Source: a virus
Taxonomy: Duplodnaviria; Heunggongvirae; Uroviricota; Caudoviricetes
IMG/VR virus record: IMGVR_UViG_3300020721_000006
DNA length: 64,000 nt
Direction: 5' to 3' (one strand)
Positions 3,504-56,576 of the stretch are shown here, piece after piece. The first letter of the stretch is position 1. The number at the start of each line of letters is the position of its first letter. The position numbers and the translations under genes were made by a program. A model generated the notes under the pieces. It was not told where the DNA came from. It searched no databases and worked only from the letters and a program-made list of their open reading frames with translations.

Positions 3504-3560
3504 GATAAATAGATATAGGTCGCGGGATTGCAGTCCCCACCTATTCTAAAGCCTTGGAGG
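3504..3560 (+). promoter_or_regulatory. late-promoter-like GATAAATA box (3504-3511) plus conserved hairpin ATAGGT-CGCGGGATTGCAGTCCCC-ACCTAT (3515-3544) and GGAGG RBS (3556-3560) preceding GIY-YIG gene
   Basis: same architecture found upstream of the other four GIY-YIG genes, with compensatory stem changes. Confidence 0.45.
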
Positions 3561-3568
3561 TCATCAGC

Positions 3569-4237
3569 ATGAATATTTATCAACCTTATACGTATCTATT
3601 AAAATTTAAACCAACTGGGCAAGTTTATTATGGAGTTTCGTATATTAATCATTATAGAGGAAAAGCACATCCATCTCAATTATGGAATACCTACTTTTCA
3701 TCATCTAAATATGTTAAAGAATTAATAAAAATTTATGGACAGGAAATGTTTGATGTGCAAGTTAGAAAAGTATTTGTATGTAGAGAAGATGCAATTAAAT
3801 GGGAACATAAAGTTTTAAAAAATTTGATGCAAAAAACAATCCAATGTGGCTCAATAAAAGTAATGGTGGAAAACAATTTATATCTCAATTTGGTAGAATT
3901 GTCACAGATGAAACCCGAAAGAAAATAGGACTTGCAAATACCGGAAAACTAAACAAAAAGAAGGGAACAACACTTTCAGACGAAACTAGGAAAAAGATGT
4001 CAATAGCATCTACCGGAAGAAAACATTCAGATGAAACAAAGAGAAAGATATCTGAGTTCAATAAAGGAAAACATCAGGGTGATAAAAATCCATTTTATGG
4101 TAAAAAATCATACACCCGAATCAATTGCAAAAATGTCAGAATCTCACAAAGGACACATTCCATGGAATAAAGGAAAGCCTGCACCACTAATTTGTCGTGT
4201 TATAGATAAAAAAGAGATGTCTGTGTTAAAGGTGTAA
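3569..4237 (+). pseudogene. GIY-YIG / NUMOD3 homing endonuclease (Seg/I-TevI-like) split over three frames
   Basis: N-terminal IYQPYTY...YYG nuclease motif; C-terminal repeats of SDETRKKxSxAxTG and NPFYGKK (NUMOD3); needs -1 shift at A AAA AAT (3817-3823) and +1 shift in A6 run (4102-4107); true start ATG 3569 (ORF-track start 3554 is a TTG). Confidence 0.7.
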
Positions 4238-6489: not shown

Positions 6490-6492
6490 AAA

Positions 6493-6861
6493 ATGTACAA
6501 ACTAACTAACAACACATCAATAATCCGCATAGAAGATAACGCTTGTATCCCAAACGATCCAACCAACACCGATTACCAAGCCTACCTAGCGTGGCTAGAA
6601 GAGGGCAACACACCCGAACCTGCTGATATACCACCTGTAGTTATACCCAACATCTCAATGCGACAAGCGAGATTAGCACTATTAGCTGATGGCTTACTTG
6701 ATGATATTGAAGCTGCTATGTCTACACCTGAGTATAAAATTTGGTGGGAATATTCAACGGTTGTTGAGCGTAATAATCCGCTTGTTGAGCAAGTGCTAGC
6801 AATCCTCGGCAAAAGTGATGCTGAGATAGATCAAATGTTTATAGGAGCATCACAGTTATGA
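6493..6861 (+). CDS. hypothetical protein in fibre module (122 aa)
   Basis: ORF tightly packed between fibre genes (overlaps next by 4 nt). Confidence 0.45.
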
Positions 6862-8471
6862 GTTCTATCGTAGTTGCTGGAGATACCAGCGGTTCAATCA
6901 CATTACAAGCGCCTGCAGTAGCAGGGAGTACGGTTTTAACTTTGCCCACAACTTCAGCAACTTTAATCACGGACAGCTCGGGAATATTGAACATAGGCTC
7001 AGGTCAAGTCTATAAAGATGCTTCAGGCAACGTGGGGATTGGGGTTATACCTAGCCCAGCCCAGGGAGGGTTATTACAATTAGGTAACACATCACAATAT
7101 GGTTTTCAAGGGCCAATAGGTTATTTAAACGCAAATATATACTTTGGAACTGGGGCTTTTAGGTACTCAATAACAGGCGCAGCTTCGTCATATCAACAAA
7201 ATTCAGGGTATCATATTTGGAGTTACGCGGCTTCAGGTACAGCCAATGCAGCGGTTTCTTTAACAGAAGCTATGCGCATCGACTCCTCCGGCAACGTGGG
7301 GATTGGGACGAGTAGTCCTAGCACTTACGCTGGAAAAGTAGTTTCTTACAATAATACAAATGGTTTAGCGTCATTTACAGCGTTGTCTGGTTTAGCGGCT
7401 ACCAGTGTTATAGAAATACAAGATGGTGCAGCAACTCCAAACAGATGGTGGTTATTATCTGGATTAGGAACAACAACAGATGGAACTTTTTCTATTTATG
7501 ATAAAAGGCAAAGTGTTTCAAGATTAGCCATCGACTCCAGCGGCAACGTGGGGATTGGGACTACACCATCAGGAACATACAAACTTGAAGTAACAGGAGC
7601 TATAGGTAGTTCAACCACCATAAATGCAACAACCGGATATAAGGTTGCAGGTGCAGCTACATCAGGACAATATCTACGAGGTAATGGCACTAACTTTGTA
7701 TCTTCTGCCATACAAGCAGCTGATGTACCCACACTTAATCAAAATACTACAGGCAATGCCGCCAATGTGACGGGAACTGTTGCCGTAGGTAACGGTGGAA
7801 CTGGGTCAACAACATTGCCCACTAATAACGTGCTACTAGGTAACGGCACATCAGCATTACAAGCGGTCGCCCCAAGTACATCGGGCAACGTATTAACATC
7901 AAATGGGACAACATGGCAATCAATCGCGCCAAGTGGTGGCGGTGGCGGTTTCACCAGTATGGTCGTCTTCACAGCATCAGGTACATGGACTATTCCTGCT
8001 GGCATTACTAAGGCGAAAGTGACTATCCAAGGGGCTGGCGGTGGTGGTGGTGGTGGTTTTGGTTATGAAAACGGCGGCGGCGGCGGTGCGACTATAAAAT
8101 ATGTAACTGGATTGACTCCAGGTGGAACTGTTGTTTGTACGATTGGCGCTGGTGGCTCTGGTGCCGTCGCTTGTGGTGCGAATGGTGGTGCGGGCGGGAC
8201 TACATCTTTTGGCGCTTATTGCTCTGTAACTGGCGGAGGAGCAGGGCTTTCGTCAGGAGTCACAGGGTCAGGAGGCGTAGGAACAGGCGGGAATTGGAAC
8301 CTTACTGGATCAGGTTTATTTTCAGGTTATTATATCAACACACCGCCCTCTTTATCCTATATTTCTGATGGCACTGTGGCACGAGGTAGTGGTGGCGTTG
8401 CTGGTAATTATTGTGGAGTACCTACACCAGCTACTGCTGGAATGTCAGGTTTTATCATGATTGAATATTAA
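6858..8471 (+). CDS. tail fibre protein with four SGNVGIGT repeats and glycine-rich C-terminal region
   Basis: repeats DASGNVGIG / DSSGNVGIG x4; poly-Gly tracts [17 protein letters not shown] near C-terminus. Confidence 0.7.
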
Positions 8472-8484
8472 GGAGAAAATATAA

Positions 8485-8736
8485 ATGAAAGCATTAATAA
8501 GCCCTATTGAACCTGTAAACAATTCTGACGGCACAACGGGCTATCGAGTTGCACAAGTTGAAGAAATAACTTTTGATGTAGCTGAACCATTATATTGGCT
8601 TGACTGCGATGCCAACGTGATAGCAGATATTTACTATTTTGATACTACATCTAATAATATATTAATTAAGCCTGTTATTGCTCATACTAATGTATCAAAC
8701 ACACAACCAATATCAACTGGAACACAAGCATTCTAA
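8485..8736 (+). CDS. hypothetical protein (83 aa)
   Basis: RBS AAGGAGAAAAT upstream; TAATG coupling to next gene. Confidence 0.45.
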   Translation: MKALISPIEPVNNSDGTTGYRVAQVEEITFDVAEPLYWLDCDANVIADIYYFDTTSNNILIKPVIAHTNVSNTQPISTGTQAF

Positions 8737-9020
8737 TGGATATTTTGATACTGCCCCCAGCGCATAGCCTAACTTATGACGGTGCAACACTAAACATTTA
8801 TCACGCCAACAAGGGTGAGGGATTGCCGCATCATGTTCACACGTTTAGTCACGCAACCATGTGTCATTCAGGGTCAATCATTGTCCGTAAGGAGGGCAAA
8901 GAAATGATAGTTACTAAAGAAACTCAACCTATAAATCTTACTGCTAATGAATGGCATGAAATTGAAGCATTAGAAGATAATACAGTGTTCTGTAATATGT
9001 TCTCTGAAGGAAAATATTAA
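8736..9020 (+). CDS. small cupin-fold protein
   Basis: His-rich metal-site-like motif GLPHHVHTFSHATMCHSGSII within a ~90 aa beta-rich protein. Confidence 0.4.
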   Translation: MDILILPPAHSLTYDGATLNIYHANKGEGLPHHVHTFSHATMCHSGSIIVRKEGKEMIVTKETQPINLTANEWHEIEALEDNTVFCNMFSEGKY

Positions 9021-9036
9021 GGGCATGGTGATGAGT

Positions 9037-9201
9037 ATGCTAGATAAACTTGAAGCTTCAGCTAGAGCCGCGTCATGTATTTCATATTTAACTAGCGTGG
9101 GGTTAGTGACTGGAAGTCTCTGGGAGTTTTTAAACACTAACGCCGCTGGCTTTGGTGCAGAAAAACTAAAAGAGTTACTTGCTCTTGTGAAGAGTAAATA
9201 A
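9037..9201 (+). CDS. small protein (~54 aa), one hydrophobic segment
   Basis: ORF below track cutoff; stop TAA 9199-9201 overlaps ATG of next gene. Confidence 0.3.
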   Translation: MLDKLEASARAASCISYLTSVGLVTGSLWEFLNTNAAGFGAEKLKELLALVKSK

Positions 9202-9614
9202 TGACTAACGAAAAAATGAAATTAGCTTTTGAGAGAATGGCTGGCATACCTGATGCTTGGACTAACCCAACACTTATGCAATCTCGTAATGGATTTTTTG
9301 CTACATCTGATAAAATATTTAAAGAAAATATTCAAAATATTAACAATGCATTAGAAATTGTTTCTAACATAGGTGGTAAAACATTTGATTGGACCGATGA
9401 CTATATTACCGAAAAAGGCGGTGTAGATGGTTATTTTGTTAATAAATCAGACTTTGGAGTAATAGCGCAAGATGTTCAATCAGTATTTCCACTAGCAGTA
9501 AGAACAAGAACTGATGGAACATTAGCAGTAGATTATATAAAGCTTTGTGCATTAGCATTTGCTGCAATTAGAGAATTAAAAAATGAAGTTGATAATTTAA
9601 GGAAAACAATATGA
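9201..9614 (+). CDS. stand-alone peptidase-S74-like intramolecular chaperone domain protein
   Basis: SDKIFKENIQNI ... GKTFDW ... GVIAQDVQSVFPLAV ... VDYIKL ... ELKNEVDNL pattern matching C-terminal auto-chaperone domain of fibre 9798. Confidence 0.5.
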   Translation: MTNEKMKLAFERMAGIPDAWTNPTLMQSRNGFFATSDKIFKENIQNINNALEIVSNIGGKTFDWTDDYITEKGGVDGYFVNKSDFGVIAQDVQSVFPLAVRTRTDGTLAVDYIKLCALAFAAIRELKNEVDNLRKTI

Positions 9615-9672
9615 TATTAAATGGATCTAATGGAATAAGTGGATTACCAGTCCCATTAGCACTTAGTCAAGG

Positions 9673-9798
9673 TGGAACAGGATGTTGACTATCACTGGTT
9701 GGAGCAAAACTGAAGCAAGATTAGTAAAAGCAATCCAAGAACTCAAAGCCATCATCGACACGCAAAACGCTCGTATAGAAGCACTGGAGGCTAAATAA
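9673..9798 (+). CDS. small coiled-coil protein (41 aa)
   Basis: ORF with TAATG overlap to fibre gene 9798; heptad-like KAIQELKAIIDTQNARIEALEAK. Confidence 0.3.
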   Translation, partial: WNRMLTITGWSKTEARLVKAIQELKAIIDTQNARIEALEAK

Positions 9799-10970
9799 TG
9801 GCTATCACGCTAAATGGAACAACTGGAATCACAACTCCAGGTTTATTAAATACAGGTACAGAAACTATTGTTGACCTTACAACATCGGGCAATACAATAC
9901 TAGGTGATGCTTCAACAGATACTCTCAATGTAGGTAATGGTGGTATTGTCAAAGATGCGTCAGGCAACGTGGGGATTGGGACGAGTTCGCCAACAACAAA
10001 ACTTACAGTCGCAGGTGCAATAACTATCACGGGTGGATTTGCGCTCAGAGGCTCATATAGTGCTGGTGCAATAAACTCAAACTTTGCGGCTGGAGATGGA
10101 GCTTTAACATCAAACACCACAGGCTACTCCAACACAGCTAGTGGGTTGGGCGCACTCCAGTACAACACCACAGGCTACTTCAACACAGCTAGTGGGGTGG
10201 GCGCACTCAACAACAACACCACAGGCATCTCCAACACAGCTAGTGGGTTGGGCGCACTCCAGTTCAACACCACGGGCAACTACAACACAGCTAGTGGGCA
10301 GAACGCACTCAACGCCAACACCACAGGCTACTCCAACACAGCTAGTGGGTTGGGCACACTCCAGTACAACACCACAGGCTACAACAACACAGCTAGTGGG
10401 CAGAACGCACTCTATACCAACACCACAGGCAGCTACAACACAGCCAGTGGGTGGAATGCGCTCCTATCAAACACCACAGGCAACTACAACACAGCTAGTG
10501 GGGCGGGCGCACTCAACAGCAACACCACGGGGTCAGGGAACTCAGCGTTTAATCCAATAAATTCAGCAGGTACTTATGCACCTGTGTTTAACCCAACCGT
10601 AGAAAACAATCGGTTCTGTATGGGTTCAACTGGGGTGACTAATGCCTATATTCAAGTCGCTTGGACAGTCGTATCTGACGCACGTGATAAAACGAATTTT
10701 GCTCCAGTCCCCCACGGCTTAGAGTTTGTTAATCAACTTAAACCTACTGCCTATCAGTTTAAGGAAAATAGAGAAACTGATATACCAACTGGTATTGTTA
10801 GATATGGTTTTAAGGCACAGGATATACTTGCTTTGGAAGGTGACACTCCTGTCATCATTGACAATGAGGATTTAGATAAACTTAGATTCAACTCTGATAG
10901 TCTTATCCCTGTATTGGTCAATGCAATCAAAGAACTCACTGCTCGTCTTGAGCTTTTGGAAGGAAAATAA
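9798..10970 (+). CDS. tail fibre protein with ~10 tandem NTTGxxNTASGxGAL repeats and C-terminal S74-type auto-chaperone domain
   Basis: N-terminal [17 protein letters not shown]; C-terminal SDARDKTNF ... VPHGLEFVNQLKP ... KAQDILALEG ... ELTARLELLE. Confidence 0.75.
   Translation: MAITLNGTTGITTPGLLNTGTETIVDLTTSGNTILGDASTDTLNVGNGGIVKDASGNVGIGTSSPTTKLTVAGAITITGGFALRGSYSAGAINSNFAAGDGALTSNTTGYSNTASGLGALQYNTTGYFNTASGVGALNNNTTGISNTASGLGALQFNTTGNYNTASGQNALNANTTGYSNTASGLGTLQYNTTGYNNTASGQNALYTNTTGSYNTASGWNALLSNTTGNYNTASGAGALNSNTTGSGNSAFNPINSAGTYAPVFNPTVENNRFCMGSTGVTNAYIQVAWTVVSDARDKTNFAPVPHGLEFVNQLKPTAYQFKENRETDIPTGIVRYGFKAQDILALEGDTPVIIDNEDLDKLRFNSDSLIPVLVNAIKELTARLELLEGK
10110..10535 (+). repeat. 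intragenic tandem repeats (~57-nt period, ~7-8 copies) inside fibre gene 9798
   Basis: repeated acaccacaggctac(t/a)(c/a)caacacagctagtggg...gcactc units visible directly. Confidence 0.7.
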
Positions 10971-12327: not shown

Positions 12328-12360
12328 AATATACATAATGTTATAACTGTGAGTGAATTA

Positions 12361-14181
12361 ATGAAAAAGAAGAAAAATAAAATAGCAAAACCAAAACAAA
12401 TTGATGCTAATCAATTAAGAAACACTGCTGTAGCAATGCATCAACAAAACAAATTAATAGAAGCAGAAAAATTATACAAACAGCTATTAACTATATTACC
12501 AAATGATACTACTTGTTGGACTAATTTAGGAACACTAGAATACCAACGTGGCAACTTTAAAAATGCAATTCAATTCATTGATAAATCATTAAAGATAGAT
12601 CCAAACCAACCATTTGCACATAACAATCGTGGCAACATTCTTAAAGATCTTAATCTAGTCAATGAAGCATTAGAAAGTTATAGCAATGGTATAGCAATCA
12701 ATGATAAACTTCCAGAACTCTTATACAACCGTGCTATTACATTACATGAATTAGGCAGAGTTGATGAAGCATTGGAATCATACACCAAAACTATAGAAAT
12801 TGATAATAATAATATCAAAGCATATATAAATCTTGGTAACATTCTTCATGAATTAAACAGATCACACGAAGCTATAGCAAACTATAATAAAGTAAAAGAA
12901 CTACAACCAGATTTTGCATTAGCTTATGCAAATTGTGGCATTGTTTACCAACATATCAATGATGACGAAAAAGCATTAGAGAACTATACCAAAGCTACCG
13001 CAATTGAACCTATGTCATCAGTATATTCTAATCGTGGTAATATCTATCAAAATCAACATAAACTATTAGAAGCAATAGAAGAATATGAAAAAGCAATCAA
13101 AATAGATCCAACATTTCATACTGCACACGGTAACAAAGCTAATGCCCTATTATCAGTAAGAAGACTAGAAGAAGCTGAGAAATCATATAATACAGCATTA
13201 ACTATTGAACCAGACTTTGCTGATGCACTTTGGAATAAATCTATACTTCTATTATTATATGGACAATATGAAGAAGGTTTCAAATTGTTTGAAAATAGAT
13301 GGCGTTCTGCACTTAAGAACTATTATCGTAGATATGATAAACCATTGTGGAACGGACAATCATTACAAGATAAAACTATTTACATATACCCAGAACAAGG
13401 ATTTGGTGACTTTATACAATTTTGTAGATACCTACCAATGTTTGATAACATGAATTGTAAAGTAATAGTAGAAGTTCCAATACTGCTTCGAGATCTAGTG
13501 AAAACAATAAAATGCAATGCAACATTTCTAGATTCTGAAACATTTGACAAAACTATACCATTTGATTATCATTGTCCTATAATGAGTCTACCAGGTGGAT
13601 TTAAAACCACATTAGATACTATACCAGCTGATATGCCATACTTATATCCAGTTGAATCTAAACAAAAGTACTGGGCAGATAAATTAGGACCAAAAACAAA
13701 AACAAGAGTGGGATTAGTATGGTCTGGTGGATTTAGACCAGAACAACCAGAAACCTGGGCAGCTAACAGTAGAAGAAATATTAAATTAGCAAATCTAGAA
13801 TGCTTTAAAGATATAGATGTAGAATTCTATAGTATTCAAAAGGGCGCAACACCTGAAAAAGAATTAACAGATTTGGTTGCACAGAATTGGGATGGTCCAG
13901 TTATTACTAGTTATACCGATGAATTAATAGACTTTGCTGATACCGCTGCTTTCATAAGCAACTTGGATTTAGTAATATCAGTTGACACATCTACTGCCCA
14001 TGTAGCAGCTGCTATCGGTAAACCAGTATGGATATTTAATAGATTTGATGCTTGTTGGCGATGGTTACTTAACAGAACTGATAGTCCATGGTATCCAACT
14101 GTTACCTTGTTCAATCAAAAAGTTACCAATGAATGGGATGAAGTTATACAAGAAATACACGAGAAACTTAAAACATTATGA
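12361..14181 (+). CDS. TPR-repeat protein fused to glycosyltransferase-family-9-like (heptosyltransferase-fold) C-terminal domain
   Basis: N-terminal half consists of ~34-aa TPR repeats; C-terminal VDTSTAHVAAAIGKPVWIF motif typical of GT9 transferases; start more likely ATG 12361 than GTG 12349. Confidence 0.75.
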   Translation: MKKKKNKIAKPKQIDANQLRNTAVAMHQQNKLIEAEKLYKQLLTILPNDTTCWTNLGTLEYQRGNFKNAIQFIDKSLKIDPNQPFAHNNRGNILKDLNLVNEALESYSNGIAINDKLPELLYNRAITLHELGRVDEALESYTKTIEIDNNNIKAYINLGNILHELNRSHEAIANYNKVKELQPDFALAYANCGIVYQHINDDEKALENYTKATAIEPMSSVYSNRGNIYQNQHKLLEAIEEYEKAIKIDPTFHTAHGNKANALLSVRRLEEAEKSYNTALTIEPDFADALWNKSILLLLYGQYEEGFKLFENRWRSALKNYYRRYDKPLWNGQSLQDKTIYIYPEQGFGDFIQFCRYLPMFDNMNCKVIVEVPILLRDLVKTIKCNATFLDSETFDKTIPFDYHCPIMSLPGGFKTTLDTIPADMPYLYPVESKQKYWADKLGPKTKTRVGLVWSGGFRPEQPETWAANSRRNIKLANLECFKDIDVEFYSIQKGATPEKELTDLVAQNWDGPVITSYTDELIDFADTAAFISNLDLVISVDTSTAHVAAAIGKPVWIFNRFDACWRWLLNRTDSPWYPTVTLFNQKVTNEWDEVIQEIHEKLKTL

Positions 14182-17413: not shown

Positions 17414-17923
17414 ATGAATAAAGAAAAATACGTATTTTTTTGGGGCGGAGTTTTCAGCCAATGGTACAAATCTAACTTTACTTTAGATGGAATTACATTT
17501 AATACTGCTGAGCAGTTCATGATGTATCAAAGGGCCATGCTTTTTGAAGATACCGACATTGCTAAACAAATTTTAAAATGCAATGATCCTAAGAAACAGA
17601 AAGAATTAGGAAGAAAAGTAAAGAACTTTGAAATGTCAAAATGGAATGAACATTGTCTTCAATATGTATTCCGTGGTAATCATGCCAAATTTGACCAAAA
17701 CAAACGATTATATGATATGCTAATGAATACTGCTCCTGCACTATTAGTTGAAGCATCACCATTTGATCGGGTATGGGGGATAGGATTAGATGAGAAAGCT
17801 GCCAGTAAAACACCTGAAAGTGAATGGCCAGGCACAAATTGGTTGGGTAAAACATTGACAAATCTTCGTGATCACTTTGAGCATGAGGAATTAATTGAAC
17901 AATGGGAAAAAACTAATGAATAA
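17414..17923 (+). CDS. NADAR-domain protein (YbiA-like, DUF1768)
   Basis: FSQWY ... FNTAEQFMMYQRAMLF ... KELGRKVKNF ... LLVEASPFDRVWGIGL pattern characteristic of NADAR family. Confidence 0.65.
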   Translation: MNKEKYVFFWGGVFSQWYKSNFTLDGITFNTAEQFMMYQRAMLFEDTDIAKQILKCNDPKKQKELGRKVKNFEMSKWNEHCLQYVFRGNHAKFDQNKRLYDMLMNTAPALLVEASPFDRVWGIGLDEKAASKTPESEWPGTNWLGKTLTNLRDHFEHEELIEQWEKTNE

Positions 17924-30822: not shown

Positions 30823-31410
30823 TTATAATTTTAATTTTTTAAGATTAAATGGGAGGCGTCCTGGAACACATTCTTCTGGACAGGATGAGCTTAAGAAAGA
30901 ACGTTGTCCATTATTATACCATTTATAATTTTCTCGTGACTTAGTTCTTTGGGCAATTGCATCAGCCGGTTGTTGTTTTCCACGTTTTACTGCTGCATTA
31001 TTTTCTTTATGTTCCGCAGTTTGTGGTCCATAACGTTGCCCTTTCTTAACAGATGCCATATGCTGTTTGTATTCTGCAGTGCGAACTTTTCCAGAATTAG
31101 CAATTGATAATTTTTTAATAGTTTCAATAGAATGCTTACCACTATGACCAGCTTCTTCTTTAAGATTAGCCCATTCAGTGCTTTCAACTACATTCCATAA
31201 ATTACTATAATATAAACCCCATTCTTCAATTTCGCTCATGCTTTGACATTCTTTGAGAATTATTGTTTCAACATCATATCCATGTTTTTTGATGTGTAAT
31301 TTCCATTTAACTCCAGAACCTTTATAATTGTATGGGTCTGGTTTAGTTGTCATTCCTAAATATTTAAGGCCGGTTTTTCTATGTGTTTTTTGGTATAGAT
31401 AAATAATCAT
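30823..31410 (-). CDS. GIY-YIG homing endonuclease with NUMOD3 repeats
   Basis: IYLYQKTH ... KYLGMT nuclease motif; HSIETIKKLS and KHSxE-type repeats. Confidence 0.8.
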   Translation of the reverse strand: MIIYLYQKTHRKTGLKYLGMTTKPDPYNYKGSGVKWKLHIKKHGYDVETIILKECQSMSEIEEWGLYYSNLWNVVESTEWANLKEEAGHSGKHSIETIKKLSIANSGKVRTAEYKQHMASVKKGQRYGPQTAEHKENNAAVKRGKQQPADAIAQRTKSRENYKWYNNGQRSFLSSSCPEECVPGRLPFNLKKLKL

Positions 31411-33694: not shown

Positions 33695-34549
33695 ATGAAG
33701 AAAATTTTAGCAGTATTAGCATTTGCATTTTTAATAACCGGTTGCAGTGATGTTCCGTCTGGATACGTTGGTATTAAGGTAAATCTTCTTGGTTCTGAAA
33801 AAGGGGTAGATCTACAAGAGTTAGGGACCGGTCGATATTGGATTGGTATTAATGAAAAATTATATACATTTCCGGTATTTTCACAGAACCAAGTTTGGAC
33901 AAAAGATAGTAATGAAGGAAGTCCAAACGATGACAGTGTGACCTTTAATACTGAAGAAGGGCTTTCTGTTAACACCGACATTGGTATATCTTATAGTATA
34001 GATCCAAAGCGGGTATCTCTAATCTTTCAAAAATATAGAAAAGGTATAGATGAAATTACTTCTATATACATGAGAAGCATGGTGCGTGATGCATTAGTAG
34101 CAGAAGCATCTTCTAGGTCAATGGAAAGTATTTATGGTAGAGGAAAAACTGATTTTATAGCTGCTGTCCAACACCGGGTTATATCACAAACAGAACCACT
34201 TGGTATAATTGTAGAGAAGATTTATTTAATTGGTGAGTTAAGATTGCCACAAAGTGTTATTTCTTCGATAAATGCAAAAATTGAAGCCACACAGAAGACA
34301 GCACAAAGAGAAAATGAGGTTGCCCAGTCGAAAGCAGAGGCCGATAAATTAGAGCAAACCGCTAGAGGGGAAGCAAATTCAAAATTGCTTTTAGCAGAAG
34401 CGGAAGCCAAAGCTATTAAAATAAAAGGTGATGCTCTATCAGCTAATCCAAAATTGGTAGAATTATCAGCAGTAGAAAAATGGAACGGGGTTTTACCACA
34501 ATATATGATGGGTTCGACAACACCATTTATAAATATGTCTTCAAAATAG
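33695..34549 (+). CDS. SPFH/band-7 (stomatin/HflC-like) lipoprotein
   Basis: signal peptide + lipobox LITGC; SPFH core followed by Ala/Glu/Lys-rich coiled coil. Confidence 0.7.
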   Translation: MKKILAVLAFAFLITGCSDVPSGYVGIKVNLLGSEKGVDLQELGTGRYWIGINEKLYTFPVFSQNQVWTKDSNEGSPNDDSVTFNTEEGLSVNTDIGISYSIDPKRVSLIFQKYRKGIDEITSIYMRSMVRDALVAEASSRSMESIYGRGKTDFIAAVQHRVISQTEPLGIIVEKIYLIGELRLPQSVISSINAKIEATQKTAQRENEVAQSKAEADKLEQTARGEANSKLLLAEAEAKAIKIKGDALSANPKLVELSAVEKWNGVLPQYMMGSTTPFINMSSK

Positions 34550-34596: not shown

Positions 34597-35562
34597 TTAT
34601 TTTGGATGATTGCGATTATAAGTTTCTTTATATTTTAATCTTGACTGCAGTTTTTGTTCGGCGGTCCTACCACTTTTTGTTTGTTTTTCTTTCCGTTTTC
34701 GTTCATTCTCCTGTTCAGGAGTTCTAGCAGCATGAGAATTTTTTAGTTTTAGTGTTATTACTAATTTTTCTTCTGGTGTTTTAGCATCAAATGTAGCTTT
34801 GCGCTTTGCTATAATATCTAATTTTTCTTCTAACGGTTTTGCCTCGATGGTTGCTTTAAGTGTTGTTTTTTGTTTTTCTATTTGAGTTTGTTTTTCTTCA
34901 GGTGACCTAGCATTCTTTGTTTTCCATTCTTTTTGTTTAGTTTCCAATTTTTCTTCTGATGTTCTATTAATTTTAGCTAATCTTTGTTTTTCTTTCGTTG
35001 CTAATTTTTCCTCTGGAGATTTTGCATCTTCTGTAGCTTTTTTCTTTGCATTGACCAATAATCTTTCTGCTGGGGTTCTTGAAGTTTTTGCTAGTCGTTG
35101 CTTTTCTTTAATTGTATAGTTTTCTTCTGCACTTCTAGCTGCTTCTGTAGCTTTTTTCTTTTCTGCAATTAATGTTTTTTCATACAAACATTTAGCCTTT
35201 CTAGTTATTGCAGTTTTTGCAATAGAATCTTCAGTAGCATGAAATTTATTACCACCGTTATTTTTATTAAGCCAATATGGACTTTTCGCTGCATTAATTC
35301 TTGTTAAGAACTTATGTTCCCAAGCGACTGTATCTTTTCTAGTTTTAAATATTTTTCGTATTTGAACAGAAAATAATTCCTTGCCATGTAGAGCAATTAG
35401 ATTTTTTATTTCTTTTGATGATGTAAAATATGTCACCCAAAACTCAGTTGGATTTGCCACATTTTTTCTACTATTTGCATACCTACATCCGTAATAACGT
35501 TGGCCGGTTATTAGAAATGTTATGCAATATGTATACGGGACATAAATAAGTTTGTTGGTCAT
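34597..35562 (-). CDS. GIY-YIG-like endonuclease N-domain fused to long array of ~25-aa RTPEEKL/KEKQRLAK repeats
   Basis: N-terminus homologous to ORF 3569 (PYTY ... TGQ.YYG ... WEHK ... WLNKNNGG). Confidence 0.65.
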   Translation of the reverse strand: MTNKLIYVPYTYCITFLITGQRYYGCRYANSRKNVANPTEFWVTYFTSSKEIKNLIALHGKELFSVQIRKIFKTRKDTVAWEHKFLTRINAAKSPYWLNKNNGGNKFHATEDSIAKTAITRKAKCLYEKTLIAEKKKATEAARSAEENYTIKEKQRLAKTSRTPAERLLVNAKKKATEDAKSPEEKLATKEKQRLAKINRTSEEKLETKQKEWKTKNARSPEEKQTQIEKQKTTLKATIEAKPLEEKLDIIAKRKATFDAKTPEEKLVITLKLKNSHAARTPEQENERKRKEKQTKSGRTAEQKLQSRLKYKETYNRNHPK

Positions 35563-40623: not shown

Positions 40624-40630
40624 TATTCTC

Positions 40631-43561: not shown

Positions 43562-43597
43562 AATATGATTAAAAAAAGATTTCAGAACACAAATTTT

Positions 43598-43798: not shown

Positions 43799-44076
43799 CC
43801 CCACCTCAATGCAAACCAATTACGGTCTGCTTCATCCTTTATTAAAATTCTTTCAGATCCAAGCCAACACCATTTAGGATTTACTTCACCCATACATGCT
43901 ATTTCCTCATATTCATAGTATTCACAACTTGGTCCAAACTGTTCCCAACACCATTGGCGGATATCACGTACTCTAGCCATATTTTCTGATTTATTATAAT
44001 GATACATTAACGCCATATAGGTAAAATATGAATTACCATTGTGTCTACCATCCATCTTTTGTATTTTTATTTTCAT
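43795..44076 (-). CDS. WF-family protein (QWCWEQFG ... RNWFALRWG), first gene of leftward array
   Basis: both motifs. Confidence 0.55.
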   Translation of the reverse strand: MKIKIQKMDGRHNGNSYFTYMALMYHYNKSENMARVRDIRQWCWEQFGPSCEYYEYEEIACMGEVNPKWCWLGSERILIKDEADRNWFALRWG

Positions 44077-45937: not shown

Positions 45938-46507
45938 ATGAATTTAGGTAATATAGTAGGTAATTTAATAATAGCACCACCATCAGTCAAAGGCAACTTT
46001 TGGTATAAAACAGTTATAATGATAGTTGAACATTATAATTATGGAAGTATAGGTCTAGTCCTTAATAAACGTAGTAATCTAACTATTAATGAGTTGGGTG
46101 AAAAAGTAGGACTAGACTTTGATATACCAGGATTTGTTTATAATGGTGGACCAATTAGTCCCAATAGTCTTTCATTGATACATTCAAATGAATGGGAGTG
46201 TAAAAATACATTAAGAATCAATGATAACTTTTCATTAAGTTCATCAGATAAGATTCTGCCAAGACTTGCCAATGGTGACTTTCCAAATAAATGGAGATTG
46301 ATGTTTGGGATGTGTGGATGGGCCAATGACCAACTGCGCTCAGAAATATCGGGAACTCCACCGTATAATCATACCAATAGTTGGTGTACAGCTTCAAGCG
46401 ACATTGATTTGGTATTTGACCAAGATCAAAAAACACAATGGCAAAATGCGTTAGAAAAATCCGCAGAAGATTTTGCAAAATCAATTGAATTTAAAAGTAA
46501 AATATAA
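45938..46507 (+). CDS. AlgH/YqgE-family protein (UPF0301, DUF179)
   Basis: N-terminal LIIAPPSVKGNFWYKTVIMIVEHYNYGSIGLVLNKRSNL closely parallels E. coli YqgE. Confidence 0.7.
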   Translation: MNLGNIVGNLIIAPPSVKGNFWYKTVIMIVEHYNYGSIGLVLNKRSNLTINELGEKVGLDFDIPGFVYNGGPISPNSLSLIHSNEWECKNTLRINDNFSLSSSDKILPRLANGDFPNKWRLMFGMCGWANDQLRSEISGTPPYNHTNSWCTASSDIDLVFDQDQKTQWQNALEKSAEDFAKSIEFKSKI

Positions 46508-46518: not shown

Positions 46519-47031
46519 ATGGATTGTTTATTACTAAATGCATCAGGAATGCCTGTTAGTATAATGCCACTCAGCACTATATCATGGCAGGATTCAATAA
46601 AATATATGGTTTTAGAAAAAGCCGATGTTGTGCTGTGGCACGACAATTGGACCATTCGCTCTGCAAATTGGAAAACTAATGTCCCAGCTGTTCTAATGCT
46701 CCGTGAATATTTAAAACCAAAAACTACAGTAAAATTTAGTCGGGCAAGTTTACTGGTAAGAGATGATGGAATATGTCAATACTGCGGAACTACACTTAAT
46801 TTAAAAACTGCTACAATAGATCACGTTATCCCATCATCAAAAGGTGGAAGAACTAGTTGGAATAATTGTGCACTGTCATGTTCAAAATGTAATTCGGAAA
46901 AGGGAAATTCCTATCCATGGAAGAGCCCATATAATACTCCTTATAAACCTGATTATTTTGAATTAGTAAACAAACGTAAGAAATTTGGTTTTGAAGTTAA
47001 ACATAAGGAATGGTTACATTATATTTTTTAA
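46519..47031 (+). CDS. HNH endonuclease
   Basis: CQYCG ... IDHVIP ... [17 protein letters not shown]. Confidence 0.75.
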
Positions 47032-47808
47032 CGTATCTGATACAGTTTCTGGTGTCCTAAGCCAGAAAGTATATCCAGCAAACTTTCCTTTTTGTATAAT
47101 TTCCCCATCATACTTGTTAATAAGACAATAAATATTTCGTGCTTTAGCACCTATATTTGATGCAAAATCTGGTAGTGATATAAAAACATTAATATTTCCT
47201 TTTGGATCTTTTACAATTAATTTTTTACATTGTTCTCTAGTTTTTTCGTTTCCAATTTTACCGTGTAGTGCCAATTTATTTCTTTCATCGGAATTTAAAA
47301 ACCGTTTGGATTGTGCATTAGAGCAAGTAGCTTTATATATATCCGACATAAATTTTCCTTTATTTTTTGATGGTCTTCCTTTCATAGCTAATGATAATTT
47401 TAGATTTTTTCTGCCTGTATTAGCAAGTCTTGTTTTTTCCACTGCTTCTCTAGGCATTATTCTTCCTGTACATATTTTGGACATATGTATTTTATATTCT
47501 TCGGTATGTTTATATCCATGAGCACCTTCACCACCATCAGTTAGATTTCTTAAAATACCAGTTCCATTATTTTTCCTACCATACCATCGAATTACTCTAC
47601 GTTCAATTGCAAATGCTCCAATACTACTTAAATTTGATTCAATAATAACTATTCGTTTTTTATCAGTTGGGACTTTTACAGTATGGTCATTTGAGAAAGC
47701 TCGATAACCAGTTCCCTTGCCAATATAGTAAGGGGTTCCATCTTTTTTACGAAGATATGCGTATACATAAAATCTAAAAATAGGATCGTTGTTTGTATAA
47801 ATATTCAT
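47014..47808 (-). CDS. GIY-YIG homing endonuclease with NUMOD3 repeats
   Basis: FRFYVYAY ... PYYIGKGTG; [11 protein letters not shown] etc. Confidence 0.8.
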
Positions 47809-47891: not shown

Positions 47892-48302
47892 ATGAAAAAT
47901 ATACTTTGGAAAATAGCAGGATTTATCTTACTAGGATTGGCATATATCGGAGTAATCACCCCAGGGGTCCCCTTTAGCATTTTTATCGTGGGTGCTGCAT
48001 ATTGCTTTTCTAAAAGCAGTCCTAATATGCATAATTGGATTTATAATCATAAATTATTTGGTCCATTTATTACTAATTGGACACATTATAAGGTATTTCC
48101 AATCAAAGCAAAATACCTCATGGTAGGAATGATGGCTAGTAGTCTAATAATAATGTGGTTTACTACACATAATGAAAAAGCAGTGTTATATGCTGGCATT
48201 ACAATGTTTCTAGTCGTGATATGGGGATGGCGATATCCAGGAAGTATAAAAGAATATGATAATAGAATAGAATTACACAAAAAGATAGGGTGGTTTGTTT
48301 AA
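47892..48302 (+). CDS. YbaN-family inner-membrane protein (DUF454)
   Basis: PGVPFSIFIVGAAYCFSKSSP ... HNWIYNHKLFGPFITNW pattern parallels E. coli YbaN. Confidence 0.7.
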   Translation: MKNILWKIAGFILLGLAYIGVITPGVPFSIFIVGAAYCFSKSSPNMHNWIYNHKLFGPFITNWTHYKVFPIKAKYLMVGMMASSLIIMWFTTHNEKAVLYAGITMFLVVIWGWRYPGSIKEYDNRIELHKKIGWFV

Positions 48303-48337: not shown

Positions 48338-49051
48338 ATGAAATATATTTTATTACTATTACTAATGGTAGTTGCACCAGTACACGCTGGGGTAATCAAT
48401 GACCAATGTCCACAACTAACTGTAAATGGAACACCATTATATCAACCACATCCAGGTGACCAAGAAATTTGTCATTTGAACTATGCAGTGATTCATAGAT
48501 GTGATGTCAAAGCACCAGTAGCAGTGTTCGAACATCTATCTATGGATGATATGACAGGTCCAGCTAAAAGGAAAGACAACTTCCATCCAGATCCATCTGT
48601 TGCGCCACAATGTTCTGCAACATTAGCTGATTATGCTACTGTTGGTAACAAGTATGATCGAGGACATATGTCCCCAGCTAAGAATAATACACAAAATGAT
48701 GCTGTTATGAGTGAAAGTTTTAATTTGTCTAATATGGTTCCACAAGTTGCCAATAATAATAGAGGAATTTGGAAATCACTTGAAACTATTGAACGGCAAT
48801 GGGCTATGACACCAGGTACTGATTTTTATATTATATCAGGTGGAATTTATGACCCAGGACATTTTGTAACTGGGAATGGATTAGGAATTCCAACTCGATT
48901 ATATAAGATCATAGTTGAAAAGAATAGTAGAACAGTTAAAGCATATTTAATGCCAAATGCGCCATTACCAGTAGCAGATTTACCAAAATACGAAGTACCA
49001 ATGGCTGCAGTTGAAGAAGCAACTCAAATGAAATTTGAGTTGGGTCAGTAA
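48338..49051 (+). CDS. secreted DNA/RNA non-specific endonuclease (NucA/Serratia nuclease family)
   Basis: signal peptide MKYILLLLLMVVAPVHA; catalytic DRGHMSPA and NMVPQ motifs. Confidence 0.8.
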   Translation: MKYILLLLLMVVAPVHAGVINDQCPQLTVNGTPLYQPHPGDQEICHLNYAVIHRCDVKAPVAVFEHLSMDDMTGPAKRKDNFHPDPSVAPQCSATLADYATVGNKYDRGHMSPAKNNTQNDAVMSESFNLSNMVPQVANNNRGIWKSLETIERQWAMTPGTDFYIISGGIYDPGHFVTGNGLGIPTRLYKIIVEKNSRTVKAYLMPNAPLPVADLPKYEVPMAAVEEATQMKFELGQ

Positions 49052-49465: not shown

Positions 49466-49699
49466 ATGAGTTTATTAAGTGATATAATTAATAGTGGTCA
49501 ACAATGGGCCATCGATAGAGCTAATTATGCCGTCCAAGTTTCAGAAGCAGTTGCATCTGGTCAATTGAGTGCTGAAGAAGGAAAAGAAATTTTAGCAGAT
49601 CTAATTAGCACAGAAAAACTAGAAGAATCAGCTAATAATGCTCAACTTAGAGCAGCATTGGTAGAATTAGTTACAATCGCCGCTAAAGCTATGGCTTAA
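49466..49699 (+). CDS. hypothetical helical protein
   Basis: GGAGAATAAA RBS before ATG 49466. Confidence 0.4.
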   Translation: MSLLSDIINSGQQWAIDRANYAVQVSEAVASGQLSAEEGKEILADLISTEKLEESANNAQLRAALVELVTIAAKAMA

Positions 49700-49942
49700 T
49701 ACTGCAGTTAACGCATTTATTAAGTCTTCAATCAGTAATTCTTTATCAGTGAACGGATCAGATACCCATATAGTTTCTATAAATTCTTTGCCATGTTTTT
49801 TATAGTGTTTCTTCCAATATGTGCCGGACCCTAGATACTTATAAGGATCAGATTCTGTAGTTTTACCAAAATATTTAAGACCTGTTATTGAATGTTTTTT
49901 AATATAAAGATATGTTGGTGGTATTTCTGTATAAATACACAT
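49667..49942 (-). CDS. short free-standing GIY-YIG nuclease domain (no DNA-binding tail)
   Basis: CIYTEIPP ... LYIKKH ... KYFGKTT motif; real ATG at 49942, ORF-track start is TTG. Confidence 0.55.
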   Translation of the reverse strand: MCIYTEIPPTYLYIKKHSITGLKYFGKTTESDPYKYLGSGTYWKKHYKKHGKEFIETIWVSDPFTDKELLIEDLINALTAVLSHSFSGDCN

Positions 49943-50010
49943 GCTGATGTCCTCCATAGACGTTAGAGTAGTTGGGAACGTCAATTCCGTGAACTACATC
50001 TTTATTTATC
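49943..50010 (-). promoter_or_regulatory. HEG leader module: GATAAATAAAG late box (overlapping hemA stop codon) + hairpin GTAGTT-CACGGAATTGACGTTCCC-AACTAC + GGAGG RBS
   Basis: conserved architecture. Confidence 0.5.
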
Positions 50011-51214
50011 TCGAATACCTTTTCATTACGATAGTCAACGTTTCAACAAGATCGGAAATCATACCATCGGTGTGGTTCGGAGTAGGGGCGAACCTCAATC
50101 GTTCAGTACCAACTTCAACTGTAGGAAAATTTATGGCTTGAACGTAAATGTTATAATCATTTAACAAAATATCACTTATCTCTTTGGCTTTCTTTGCATC
50201 ACCAATTATTACTGGAACAATGTGGGTTTTTCCATCCATCACTGGTATATTGTATTCTCTCATAAGAAATCTTAATTTATTCGCACGTTCTTTAATTTTC
50301 TCTCTTATTTCATTATGATCTTTTAAATATTTCACAGCAGCCAATGCACCAGCACATATTACTGGACTTAGTGATGTTGAGAATATAAACCCAGCCGCAA
50401 TACTTCTGATTGCATCTACTACGATGGCATCAGCAGCAATATATCCACCCTGAACTCCATATGCCTTACCTAATGTTCCATTAACAATATCAACTCGATC
50501 TTGTAATCCAAGTTCTTCTAATAATCCAGCACCAGTTGGACCTATTACGCCTATGGAGTGGACTTCATCAAGATATGTTATGGCATTATACATATCAGCT
50601 AAATCACAAATTTCTTTAATATGGCTAATATCACCATCCATACTGTATACACTTTCAAACACTATACAAGGAGTATTCCCATTTTCAACTGCTTTCTTTA
50701 AACAACTTTCTAAATCTTCTAAATCATTATGTCTGAATATTTGTTTTGGTGCTCTACTATAACTCATACCAACAATTAGACTATTATGATTTTTGCTATC
50801 ACTAATAAATTCAATATTGTTAATGATCTTAGATAATGAAATCAATGATGACTCATTTGCCACATATGCTGAAGTAAATAACAATGCTTTTTCTTTCTTA
50901 TGTAATGATGCCAATTCATGTTCAAGTGCAACGTGGTAATGGCTAGTACCAGATATATTTCTAGTACCACCAGACCCAGCACCAGTCATATCTAATGCTG
51001 TTCTCATTGCATCTAATACTACTTTAGACTGACCCATGCCCAAATAATCATTTGAACACCAATTGACAATGTTCTTAATAGCATATGGGCCATACCATAT
51101 TGCATTAGGAAATTTACCTTGTTCTCGCAGTATGTCATTGAAAACACGATACTTTCCATTATCTTTTAAATTTTGTATTAAATTGTTGAAAGGAGTTTTA
51201 TTAATCATTTCCAT
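50006..51214 (-). CDS. hemA: 5-aminolevulinate synthase (alpha-oxoamine synthase family, PLP-dependent)
   Basis: ALAS-specific blocks: NDYLGMGQ, TGAGSGGTRNISGT, FESVYSMDGD (PLP lysine context), NGTLGKAYGVQGGYIAA, GFIFSTSL, YVQAINFPTV; 402 aa. Confidence 0.9.
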   Translation of the reverse strand: MEMINKTPFNNLIQNLKDNGKYRVFNDILREQGKFPNAIWYGPYAIKNIVNWCSNDYLGMGQSKVVLDAMRTALDMTGAGSGGTRNISGTSHYHVALEHELASLHKKEKALLFTSAYVANESSLISLSKIINNIEFISDSKNHNSLIVGMSYSRAPKQIFRHNDLEDLESCLKKAVENGNTPCIVFESVYSMDGDISHIKEICDLADMYNAITYLDEVHSIGVIGPTGAGLLEELGLQDRVDIVNGTLGKAYGVQGGYIAADAIVVDAIRSIAAGFIFSTSLSPVICAGALAAVKYLKDHNEIREKIKERANKLRFLMREYNIPVMDGKTHIVPVIIGDAKKAKEISDILLNDYNIYVQAINFPTVEVGTERLRFAPTPNHTDGMISDLVETLTIVMKRYSR

Positions 51215-51246
51215 ATTTACCTAAATAGATAATAGAGGAAAAATTT

Positions 51247-51504
51247 ATGGCAGCCAACGGAATTTCAACATTATCTACCAAACAAGCTAAGCAAGAACAA
51301 AAACTTGCAATTGCTGAAGCAAAGCGTCAAGGCAAAACTGTAGCAGTTGATGGAACTATTACAGGTAGTTTAGACAATACTAAAAACTATTACAGACCAT
51401 TACATACATTGGCAATAAACAATTTACCAACAAAGTATAGTGGCAACAATGTAGTAGACAACCCAAATGTTGGTGGGTTAGTTCAAGGCCGTCCCTGGAT
51501 ATAG
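51247..51504 (+). CDS. hypothetical protein (85 aa)
   Basis: AGAGGAAAAA RBS. Confidence 0.45.
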   Translation: MAANGISTLSTKQAKQEQKLAIAEAKRQGKTVAVDGTITGSLDNTKNYYRPLHTLAINNLPTKYSGNNVVDNPNVGGLVQGRPWI

Positions 51505-55295: not shown

Positions 55296-56576
55296 ATGAA
55301 AACAATAATTAAATCAAGTCAACATAATATCAAATTTGCTAATATTGGTAAACAACTGATATTAAAAGAATTCATTACCGAATATGATCGGGTATTGTGG
55401 TGGTTTGTTGATTATTTATGGAATAATAAAATCATTTGGGGCAATAATAGAACTTTAGATATCAAAAATAATAAATTAGATGTTCCAAGTTTTATTTCTA
55501 CCACTGATATCGATTTAATTACCGATCTTTCAGCAAGGGCAATTAAATTAGCGTCAGGGGAAGCTCTGGCAATTATCAAAAGTAGAACAGAAAAACGAAG
55601 AAAACAATTATTTGTTCTCGCTAAACAAATGCGTGCTGGTGATAAATCTATTTCAAAATTACAATCAAAAATTGATAGTAATCCATTATCAAAACCAACA
55701 CGAAATAGCAATAATTTAGTAGCAAATTTGGATAGTAATTGCTGTAAATATATCCCAGATACCACTGGTATCTTTGATGGATGGCTGAAATTATCATCAC
55801 TTGGTAAAAGGTATGGACATATTTATATACCAATTAAAACAACAAGGCATTCAAATCAATTAGCCAAGAAAGGTTATAAAATGATTACTAGTTGGCAGAT
55901 TTCTACTAACACTTTATATTCCAGATGGGAAACTACACGAGAGAAATCAACTGGTAGTAAAATCATTGGTGCAGACCAAGGATATGTTACTTGCTTATCA
56001 TTAAGTGATGGACAAACAACTAGTGCTGATATGCATGGTCATGATTTACATAGTATAATCAATAAGTTATCATATAAAAAGAAAGGCAGTAATGGCTTTA
56101 AACGAGTACAGGAACACCGAACAAATTATATCAATTGGTCCATAAATCAATTGGATTTATCAAATATAAAAGAACTCAGATTAGAAAAGTTATTTCAAAT
56201 GAGAAAAGGTTCTAATATGGGAAGAAATTTAAGTCATTGGACTTATACACAAATCAATGCACAGATAATGAAGCGATGTGAAGAACTGGGTGTCCCAGTA
56301 ATCGAGCAATCGGCTAGTTATAGAAGTCAAAGATGTAGTGATTGTGGATGGACCCAAAAATCAAATAGGAAGGGAAAGGAGTTTATATGCAATCAATGTG
56401 GCGTATGCCATGATGCCGATATAAATGGCGCCCTAAATCATGAAGCCGACTTATATCGGCTCCCTGTTGGTTTTTGGCAGAACAAATTTAATATCAAGGG
56501 GTTCTATTGGACTTCTAGAATGGTATTAGATTTATCTGGTGCGGAGCTTATAGTCCCGCATGTACAAAATGTATGA
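55296..56576 (+). CDS. tnpB: TnpB (IS200/IS605 OrfB-type RuvC-like RNA-guided nuclease homologue), no adjacent tnpA
   Basis: RuvC-I IGADQGYVTC, Zn finger CSDCGW ... CNQCGVC, RuvC-III DADINGALN; 426 aa. Confidence 0.8.
   Translation: MKTIIKSSQHNIKFANIGKQLILKEFITEYDRVLWWFVDYLWNNKIIWGNNRTLDIKNNKLDVPSFISTTDIDLITDLSARAIKLASGEALAIIKSRTEKRRKQLFVLAKQMRAGDKSISKLQSKIDSNPLSKPTRNSNNLVANLDSNCCKYIPDTTGIFDGWLKLSSLGKRYGHIYIPIKTTRHSNQLAKKGYKMITSWQISTNTLYSRWETTREKSTGSKIIGADQGYVTCLSLSDGQTTSADMHGHDLHSIINKLSYKKKGSNGFKRVQEHRTNYINWSINQLDLSNIKELRLEKLFQMRKGSNMGRNLSHWTYTQINAQIMKRCEELGVPVIEQSASYRSQRCSDCGWTQKSNRKGKEFICNQCGVCHDADINGALNHEADLYRLPVGFWQNKFNIKGFYWTSRMVLDLSGAELIVPHVQNV

Follow-up and report, generated by a model that had tools for sequence, protein, structure and literature searches.

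Introduction

Why does a tailed phage carry what looks like the gene for the committed step of tetrapyrrole synthesis, is the product really the enzyme that it resembles, and does the gene tell anything about the host of the phage? These questions are raised by a stretch of viral DNA of 64,000 nucleotides (IMG/VR record IMGVR_UViG_3300020721_000006, Caudoviricetes; this whole stretch is called the window hereafter), in which an open reading frame (ORF) on the minus strand encodes a protein of the 5-aminolevulinate synthase (ALAS) type. The answer given here is that the window very likely carries a functional viral ALAS (vAlaS, gene valaS) and that it belongs to a large phage of aquatic habitats, probably a jumbo myovirus with a genome of about 334 kb.

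A phage-encoded ALAS means a viral intervention at the committed step of tetrapyrrole synthesis, a point which has already been made and experimentally tested. A preliminary description of this DNA supposed that ALAS had not been described as an auxiliary metabolic gene (AMG) of phages. This is refuted by two publications: phage ALAS was listed in large freshwater phages by Chen et al. 2020 (bioRxiv 10.1101/2020.02.13.942896), and Wegner et al. 2024 (Nat Commun 15:8783, PMC11480375) devoted a study to the gene and named it valaS. The window ALAS belongs to this published and experimentally validated viral class and is not new. What the window adds is modest detail, namely a fixed, syntenic and strongly constrained gene in a lineage of very large phages that is widespread in aquatic habitats, a conserved palindrome upstream of this gene, and its remodelling by a homing-endonuclease cassette.

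The valaS Gene and Its Product

The gene under study is as follows.

50006..51214, minus strand: valaS coding sequence (viral 5-aminolevulinate synthase), called from the ORF, the TIGR01821 and 2bwn matches, the conserved residues and the ratio of nonsynonymous to synonymous substitution (dN/dS)

With the NCBIfam model TIGR01821 the protein scores 560.3 bits (E = 2.3e-168), the curated cutoff being 338.55. Among solved structures the ALAS of R. capsulatus ranks first (2bwn, 424 bits), followed by a bacterial ALAS (7x98), human ALAS2, yeast ALAS and then Kbl at about 210 bits, and the identity with the R. capsulatus enzyme is 52% over the whole length. By these matches, whose strength is far above chance, the ORF is assigned as a 5-aminolevulinate synthase. 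In the database of phage protein families PHROGs no family matching the protein was found, and near-identical DNA to the window was sought and not found among the phages in GenBank. In addition, a tblastn search of 50,697 phage records gave only Kbl/BioF-type matches of at most 36% identity, mostly host contamination, and none of the isolated phages in that collection has this ALAS gene.

Residue conservation was read from an alignment of 165 sequences, including 87 viral and 75 bacterial ALAS. The window protein keeps the Schiff-base lysine Lys250 and the residues binding pyridoxal 5'-phosphate (PLP), namely His143, Asp216 and His219, which correspond to K248, H142, D214 and H217 in R. capsulatus and are invariant across the 87 viral and 75 bacterial sequences. 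The substrate-binding residues Arg23, Asn55, Thr84, Asn86, Ser138, Lys157, Thr365 and Arg374 are also kept; the residues binding glycine and succinyl-CoA in the 2BWN structure are R21, N54, T83, N85, S137, K156, T365 and R374. Catalytic and substrate-binding residues are common to the window ALAS and the R. capsulatus enzyme (PDB 2BWN/2BWO/2BWP), and the two differ at the positions concerned with haem feedback, where the window protein has Lys342 for His342 and lacks the C-terminal Cys. According to Wegner et al. (PMC11480375), His342 and the C-terminal Cys (Cys400) make up the haem feedback site.

It has to be considered whether the window protein belongs to another α-oxoamine synthase family, namely Kbl, BioF or SPT, or whether it is one of the cyclising ALAS which make the C5N unit of some antibiotics. 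The fold is one across the family and all the family models match the window protein at E < 1e-50; a cyclising ALAS would match TIGR01821 too. Against this, the ALAS model alone is above its curated cutoff, while the sister models score below their own (Kbl 328 against 460 bits, BioF 316 against 426, SPT 230 against 640), all the succinyl-CoA- and glycine-binding residues of R. capsulatus are kept, and no acyl-CoA ligase/amide synthase partner was found in the 64-kb window. Moreover, a member of the same clade makes 5-aminolevulinate (ALA) in vivo and in lysate (PMC11480375). An enzyme with another product is very improbable. The preliminary description of a full-length ALAS of 402 amino acids (aa) on the minus strand is borne out by TIGR01821, the structure ranking and the catalytic residues, and its own check, a placement with KBL/BioF/SPT rather than with ALAS, came out in favor of ALAS.

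The assayed member of the clade is CB_2 vAlaS, which complemented an E. coli ALA auxotroph, and whose activity was abolished by the change K250A (PMC11480375); Lys250 of the window protein is the same position. If the window allele acts likewise, vAlaS would be a PLP-dependent homodimer converting glycine and succinyl-CoA to ALA, CoA and CO2. The infected cell would gain, via one step, the committed precursor for haem, cobalamin and other tetrapyrroles, a supply that would bypass the ALA-forming enzymes of the host and their regulation. Respiration and tetrapyrrole-dependent enzymes might thereby stay active during the production of phage progeny, from which the phage presumably benefits. The auxiliary metabolic role in tetrapyrrole supply suggested in the preliminary description is the best reading of an intact ALAS on a phage genome.

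Comparison with Published Tetrapyrrole Genes of Phages

The gene valaS is known from phage contigs of both the sea and fresh water, where it stands by itself or is accompanied by hemO and pcyA/X (PMC11480375). The humic freshwater Lake Grosse Fuchskuhle is the source of published valaS phages, and Supplementary Dataset 1 of the same study contains phage genomes of 318-374 kb from this lake. Of these published sequences, that of GROS21-1_SAMEA9560823_UViG_0011 (331,679 bp) is about 84-86% identical to the window ALAS, as counted by hand over 153 residues, and the exact window sequence is not in the supplementary alignment of PMC11480375. The window ALAS is like the published vAlaS in enzyme family, viral clade and a large phage as carrier, and it shares with them the Schiff-base position K250 and the lack of the haem-regulatory residues His342 and Cys400.

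There are also differences. The window has a guanine + cytosine (GC) content of 33%, whereas the published lake valaS genomes have 38-42%. The published valaS genomes of about 330 kb all have hemO and pcyA somewhere, and neither gene lies within the 64-kb window. Furthermore, in the accessible part of PMC11480375 there is no mention of the endonuclease cassette at the 3' end of valaS or of the upstream palindrome, both of which are described below for the lineage of the window. A related theme of phages and tetrapyrroles is found in the hemO-pcyX/pcyA cassettes of cyanophages, pelagiphages and Bradyrhizobium sp. ORS278, which sometimes include valaS. Unlike in those cassettes, valaS of the window stands alone, its neighbors being an endonuclease, DUF454, HNH and AlgH-like genes and ORFs without known function. 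At the scale of 64 kb, the window has the arrangement called individual valaS.

The Phage Carrier and the Viral ALAS Clade

The phage nature of the window is evident from its genes for tail-fibre and virion proteins, a tail lysozyme, several homing endonucleases, a PD-(D/E)XK exonuclease and an AAA ATPase; a tRNA scan of the 64 kb gave none. At least 21 assembled contigs, with a maximum length of 334,027 bp, encode exactly the window ALAS protein. The best matches of the ATPase and the exonuclease among isolates (37-50% amino acid identity) are mainly jumbo myoviruses of the Rak2-like, CBB, 121Q-like and Atu_ph07 types, with genomes of 345-490 kb, and another conserved window protein links the carrier with T4-like cyanophages as well as with an uncultured phage of 635 kb. 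Judging from these proteins, the carrier is a probable jumbo myovirus within the wider assemblage of T4-related phages, and the placement is kept at that level.

At least 397 contigs in IMG/VR encode ALAS relatives with 72-85% identity. In a neighbor-joining tree of the 165 sequences, the viral ALAS were split from the 75 alphaproteobacterial ALAS and that of R. capsulatus in 50 of 50 bootstraps, and the published marine vAlaS Ga0098058_1000146 was grouped on the viral side. Identity of the window ALAS with the viral sequences is 67-86%; with the marine type it is 61%, and with the bacterial sequences 47-55%. GC content is 0.337 in valaS and 0.331 in the window as against a median of 0.644 in the sampled bacterial ALAS genes (34% against about 64%).

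Several points weigh against the reading of valaS as a functional gene of such a phage lineage. The bacterial ALAS set behind the split and the identities was chosen via a peptide-pattern scan and is without Pelagibacterales. About 70 ORFs of the 64-kb window, each with 100 aa or more, were tested, and no haem oxygenase, bilin reductase, cobaltochelatase (cobS) or similar gene was found among them. The activity of the window allele is expected by analogy with the assayed homolog CB_2. The equivalent of His342 is present in only 10 of the 75 bacterial ALAS, so that loss of this residue is not in itself a mark of adaptation to the virus. In addition, the window ALAS is a chimera, intact in sequence, whose C-terminal residues, about 33 in number and including Arg374, are imported from another lineage and followed by the added residues RYSR. 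Finally, the start codon is ambiguous between two ATGs, the first giving 402 aa and the second (51208) giving 400 aa beginning with MINKTP. The distance from the end of a conserved upstream element to the ALAS start is 5-7 nucleotides (nt) in relatives, and the spacing in the window fits the second ATG, which may be the true start.

A Fixed Locus or Passive Cargo?

As the gene adjoins a mobile element and its relatives turn up in bacterial assemblies, the possibility has to be weighed that valaS is passive cargo, that is, mis-assembled or mis-binned bacterial DNA, or a decaying hitch-hiker kept by a selfish endonuclease. The comparison covered 87 related ALAS loci (numbered with L). In most of them the order before ALAS is an epimerase, the 44983 homolog, AlgH-like, HNH, DUF454, the non-specific endonuclease and the 49087 and 49427 homologs, ALAS lying on the strand opposite to these preceding neighbors, and the order after ALAS is the 51247, 51515, 894-aa and 54524 homologs, on to the exonuclease. 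On one flank of the window gene there are an 85-aa ORF, a 106-aa ORF and an 894-aa Gly/Ser/Thr-rich ORF without a family match, and on the other the secreted non-specific endonuclease, DUF454, HNH and AlgH-like proteins. The two genes next to valaS are as follows.

51247..51504, plus strand: divergent neighbor of 85 aa, which adjoins ALAS in 50 loci and shares the palindromic spacer
49466..49699, plus strand: convergent neighbor of 77 aa, which abuts the ALAS 3' end in endonuclease-free relatives

In L016-L029 the order is ALAS, the gene corresponding to 49466..49699 and the 49087 homolog. Four further neighbors are kept across the lineage.

45938..46507, plus strand: AlgH-like DUF179 protein, beside ALAS
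46519..47031, plus strand: HNH gene
47892..48302, plus strand: DUF454 membrane protein, beside ALAS
48338..49051, plus strand: DNA/RNA non-specific endonuclease whose N-terminus, judged by eye, is hydrophobic and resembles a signal peptide, beside ALAS

The location between structural genes, as supposed in the preliminary description, is only partly shown, since the flanks consist of the neighbors just listed and ORFs without known function. ALAS is an old and fixed member of the phage lineage, not a recent arrival.

With one representative genome per bacterial species, the true chromosomal ALAS of alphaproteobacteria are at most 56% identical to the window protein, and five contigs from metagenome-assembled genomes (MAGs) hold ALAS homologs of 67-69% identity. 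The five MAGs are labeled Crocinitomicaceae, Flavobacteriales, Neomarinimicrobiota, Vibrio and uncultured alphaproteobacterium. Four of the five contigs have the phage gene order around ALAS.

L083, JBDNIA010000195.1: MAG labeled Crocinitomicaceae, ALAS identity in the range of 67-69%
L085, PBPT01000016.1 (335,231 bp): MAG labeled Neomarinimicrobiota, same range
L086, PAND01000020.1: MAG labeled Flavobacteriales, same range
L087, NZ_JAYQDQ010000168.1: MAG labeled Vibrio, same range

These four also have the lineage neighbors DUF454, HNH, AlgH-like and the 44983 homolog, and from this gene content they look like mis-binned jumbo-phage contigs. Because the contigs share phage synteny, the labels of the bins are without host information, and several public "bacterial" MAGs hold mis-binned contigs from these phages.

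The deposition of related contigs within bacterial MAGs speaks for passive cargo, as does the mobile endonuclease cassette adjoining valaS, with part of the 3' end co-converted. The opposite is indicated by the gene order around ALAS, which recurs across many samples in dozens of independent contigs of viral origin, some of at least 350 kb, and by the GC content of valaS, which is fully ameliorated to the phage composition. Moreover, dN/dS of the window ALAS against the four nearest relatives (L001-L005) is 0.08-0.12 by the method of Nei and Gojobori, synonymous sites being saturated beyond these relatives, and purifying selection on the gene is shown. The endonuclease of the cassette was found in only 4 of the 87 loci, whereas ALAS is in all 87. 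Taken together, passive cargo is highly unlikely, and a constrained gene of the phage lineage is preferred.

The Host

The preliminary description drew from the presence of ALAS and from AT-richness an alphaproteobacterial host of the marine SAR11 type, whose own Shemin pathway would be boosted by valaS. The near bacterial relatives of the window ALAS are indeed all alphaproteobacterial, the window is AT-rich (about 33% GC), Wegner et al. reported about 55% identity to Pelagibacteraceae ALAS, and marine valaS contigs were placed with pelagimyophages by the same authors (PMC11480375). The identities, however, lead elsewhere, the window ALAS being only 61% identical to the marine pelagiphage type as compared with about 84-86% to the freshwater vAlaS of Lake Grosse Fuchskuhle, and the valaS phage TP6_1 has been assigned to a gammaproteobacterial methanotroph (PMC11480375). 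The two marker proteins, the ATPase and the exonuclease, point to the Rak2-like, CBB and Atu_ph07 jumbo phages instead. In Klebsiella phage RaK2 a stretch of 40.7 kb has 32.2% GC, and the host of RaK2 has about 57%. Low GC goes with such jumbo phages whatever the host.

Furthermore, the bins of related MAG contigs span Bacteroidota, Marinimicrobiota, Vibrio and Alphaproteobacteria. Since identity to bacterial ALAS does not exceed 56%, a recent donor cannot be named and the gene is silent on the present host. With no recent donor and with the nearest published relatives in freshwater, the alphaproteobacterial host of SAR11 type is unsupported and is considered unlikely, and the presence of ALAS and a low GC content are unfit for inferring an alphaproteobacterial or SAR11 host.

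The lack of tRNA genes in the window deprives it of one possible pointer to the host, and neither the literature, searched for the sample accessions and IMG ids, nor the cluster records yielded an environment. Two other clues were considered and set aside. A Bacteroidota host, suggested by two of the MAG labels, is unlikely, the contigs in question being syntenic phage contigs. A Shine-Dalgarno-like motif precedes 54% of the starts in the window as against 14% in the control, and this usage argues weakly against a Bacteroidota host. A TnpB-like insertion in the window was likewise uninformative, its relatives being on contigs of 250-335 kb and none on a contig of chromosome size. This insertion is a 426-aa TnpB-like ORF at 55296..56576 (plus strand) with a Pfam Cas12f1-like TNB domain and a PHROG annotation as transposase; among the 87 loci it is in only two contigs, both of the phage of the window. 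Its relatives are 50-85% identical, and the family seems to circulate among jumbo phages.

A Homing-Endonuclease Cassette at the 3' End of valaS

The preliminary description noticed a GIY-YIG cassette immediately 3' of the gene and took the locus to be mobile or recently rearranged. The ORF is real, and it is only a truncated remnant of 91 aa.

49667..49942, minus strand: truncated remnant of a Seg-like GIY-YIG homing endonuclease, 91 aa, recognized by PHROG 314 and by identity to L001
49727..50110, minus strand: tract shared with L001, with 3 differences in 384 nt

Codons 1-72 of the remnant are derived from the endonuclease, and the last 19 are the antisense of the 3' end of the convergent gene 49466..49699. 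The match to the Pfam GIY-YIG domain PF01541 (E = 0.031, 15 bits) is below the cutoff of 22.6, and that to PHROG 314 "homing endonuclease" has E = 6.7e-6. In residues 1-72 the remnant shows 100% identity with the N-terminal part of the complete endonuclease of about 267 aa in L001, which has NUMOD3-type repeats and a C-terminal Cys/His motif. The DNA-binding region represented by these repeats and this motif is absent from the remnant, whose ORF is broken at 49727. L002 has a 73% homolog of about 264 aa with NUMOD3-type repeats and the Cys/His motif, together with a tandem second gene for an I-TevI-like endonuclease, and L003, a close relative of L002, is endonuclease-free (an empty site).

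Over ALAS, the window and L001 share 68-85% nucleotide identity (about 20% divergence), which switches at 50110/50111 to the near-identity of the shared tract. This tract contains the last valaS codons, about 33 in number, the spacer and the first 72 endonuclease codons. Past 49727, where the window lost the remaining endonuclease, identity drops to 29%. One of the three differences in the tract is a 1-nt deletion, and because it removes the TAG stop of L001 and adds RYSR, the window ALAS has 402 aa instead of 398. From these identity switches, 49727..50110 is read as an imported cassette with a co-converted flank. A GIY-YIG cassette has landed at the 3' end of valaS, replacing the last codons, and has afterwards lost its own 3' two-thirds through deletion. 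Since such a cassette would bring its own replacement end and displace the resident one, a displaced 3' end is expected in L002. At 12017..12114 of L002, between the two tandem GIY-YIG genes, there is a second, displaced ALAS 3' end, which is 89% identical to the ALAS 3' end of L003, whereas the end in use in L002 is only 74% identical.

A Seg-like cassette with a replacement for the last 100 nt or so of valaS may spread between lineages that are about 20% diverged. It is a plausible but tentative proposal that valaS, the presumed target of the endonuclease, is a homing target in these jumbo phages and that, separately, the upstream palindrome is a dedicated operator. If so, chimeric valaS alleles would arise, and a selfish element would shape the evolution and spread of an AMG. 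As for recent rearrangement, the claim stands for the endonuclease cassette, which has overwritten the 3' end, and fails for ALAS, which keeps its conserved slot in most of the 87 loci.

In their sporadic occurrence between or at the ends of conserved genes, in the near-identity tract resembling co-conversion, in a late-promoter-like box with a structured leader and in the NUMOD3-type repeats of full-length copies, these elements are like the Seg endonucleases of T4-like phages. The window copy differs from those in stopping after 72 codons without the DNA-binding part and in matching the Pfam GIY-YIG domain below the cutoff.

Other endonuclease-like ORFs of the window are as follows.

3554..4170, plus strand: split SegE-type GIY-YIG ORF and NUMOD3 ORF, apparently frameshifted
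30823..31410, minus strand: 195-aa ORF without a family match, with a leader as in the other endonuclease ORFs
34597..35562, minus strand: 321-aa SegE-type ORF
47014..47808, minus strand: 264-aa GIY-like ORF, elsewhere positioned in L002

Late-Type Boxes and the Cassette Leader

The preliminary description had also placed a late box over the stop codon of the ALAS gene. A variant box GATAAATA does overlap the TAA, so the cassette has a box of its own; no perfect T4 consensus TATAAATA stands at the valaS stop, and there are 11 copies of this consensus in the window against 16.7 expected.

50003..50010, minus strand: GATAAATA box, one mismatch from the T4 consensus, overlapping the valaS TAA stop at the 5' edge of the cassette
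49968..49997, minus strand: inverted repeat of the cassette leader (GTAGTT...GGAA TTGAC GTTCC...AACTAC)

Downstream of the inverted repeat there is a Shine-Dalgarno sequence GGAGG at 49951..49955. The same layout, that is, a GATAAATA box, an inverted repeat (GTAG..CGGAATTG.AC.TTCCC..CTAC), GGAG and ATG, stands ahead of four endonuclease-like ORFs with starts at 3569, 31410, 47808 and 49942, and was not found ahead of the SegE-like ORF 34597..35562. A two-hairpin fold is predicted in the leaders, clear in three of the four; the sequences differ and the outer stem is kept, and folding is weakly better than in shuffled sequences (z-scores of -1.0 to -1.3). The GATAAATA box may be a putative late promoter of the cassette. 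In a more general count, 10 of 111 crude gene calls had TAAATA at a distance of 17-33 nt ahead of the ATG, as against 4.5 ± 2.1 after shuffling, 13 of 1000 shuffles reaching 10, and a generic scan for sigma-70 promoters and terminators around valaS gave no excess over shuffles.

A Palindrome Upstream of valaS

Between valaS and the divergent gene 51247..51504 there is a spacer of 32 nt, which contains a palindrome.

51215..51227, no strand assigned: palindrome TATTTAGGTAAAT

Of the 83 viral loci in which this could be judged, 73 have a palindrome of the form TATTTA-N(1-6)-TAAAT no more than 45 nt upstream of the ALAS start. Elsewhere it occurs 22 times in 1.27 Mb of viral loci, and in none of the 75 bacterial ALAS loci. 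Toward 51247..51504 the box is 19 nt upstream of the ATG and is followed by a GAGGAAA Shine-Dalgarno sequence, as is usual for genes of this genome. Toward ALAS the interval from the end of the box to the ATG is 5-7 nt, too short for a Shine-Dalgarno sequence. The reading favored from this geometry is that the palindrome would consist of two TAAATA promoter-like boxes placed back to back, ALAS being transcribed with a short leader or none, and a promoter function is presumed accordingly for the element as a whole. Alternatively, it might be a dedicated operator, for example an iron- or haem-responsive one.

Other Features of the Window

From 36951 to 44076 on the minus strand and from 14178 to 14664 on the plus strand there are at least about 11-13 small ORFs of 70-111 aa with a common C-terminal motif, F-x-N/S-E-A/E-D/H-x-N/T-W-F-x-L-R-W, and with pairwise BLASTP E values down to 6e-11. 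Many of them are arranged head to tail, the motif overlapping the ribosome-binding site of the next ORF (TGGTT..T.AGGTGG), and none of those tested has a Pfam match.

The stretch 5221..10970 on the plus strand is a cluster of genes for tail fibres, tail spikes and fibre chaperones (PHROG tail fibre, Peptidase_S74 chaperone). Its GC content of 0.40-0.44, compared with about 0.31 elsewhere, suggests that the module came from another source or is differently constrained. Three further, cell-like genes of the plus strand were recognized.

12349..14181, plus strand: 610-aa protein with TPR repeats and a weak C-terminal match to glycosyltransferase-9
17414..17923, plus strand: NADAR-domain protein
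33695..34549, plus strand: SPFH/Band-7 lipoprotein

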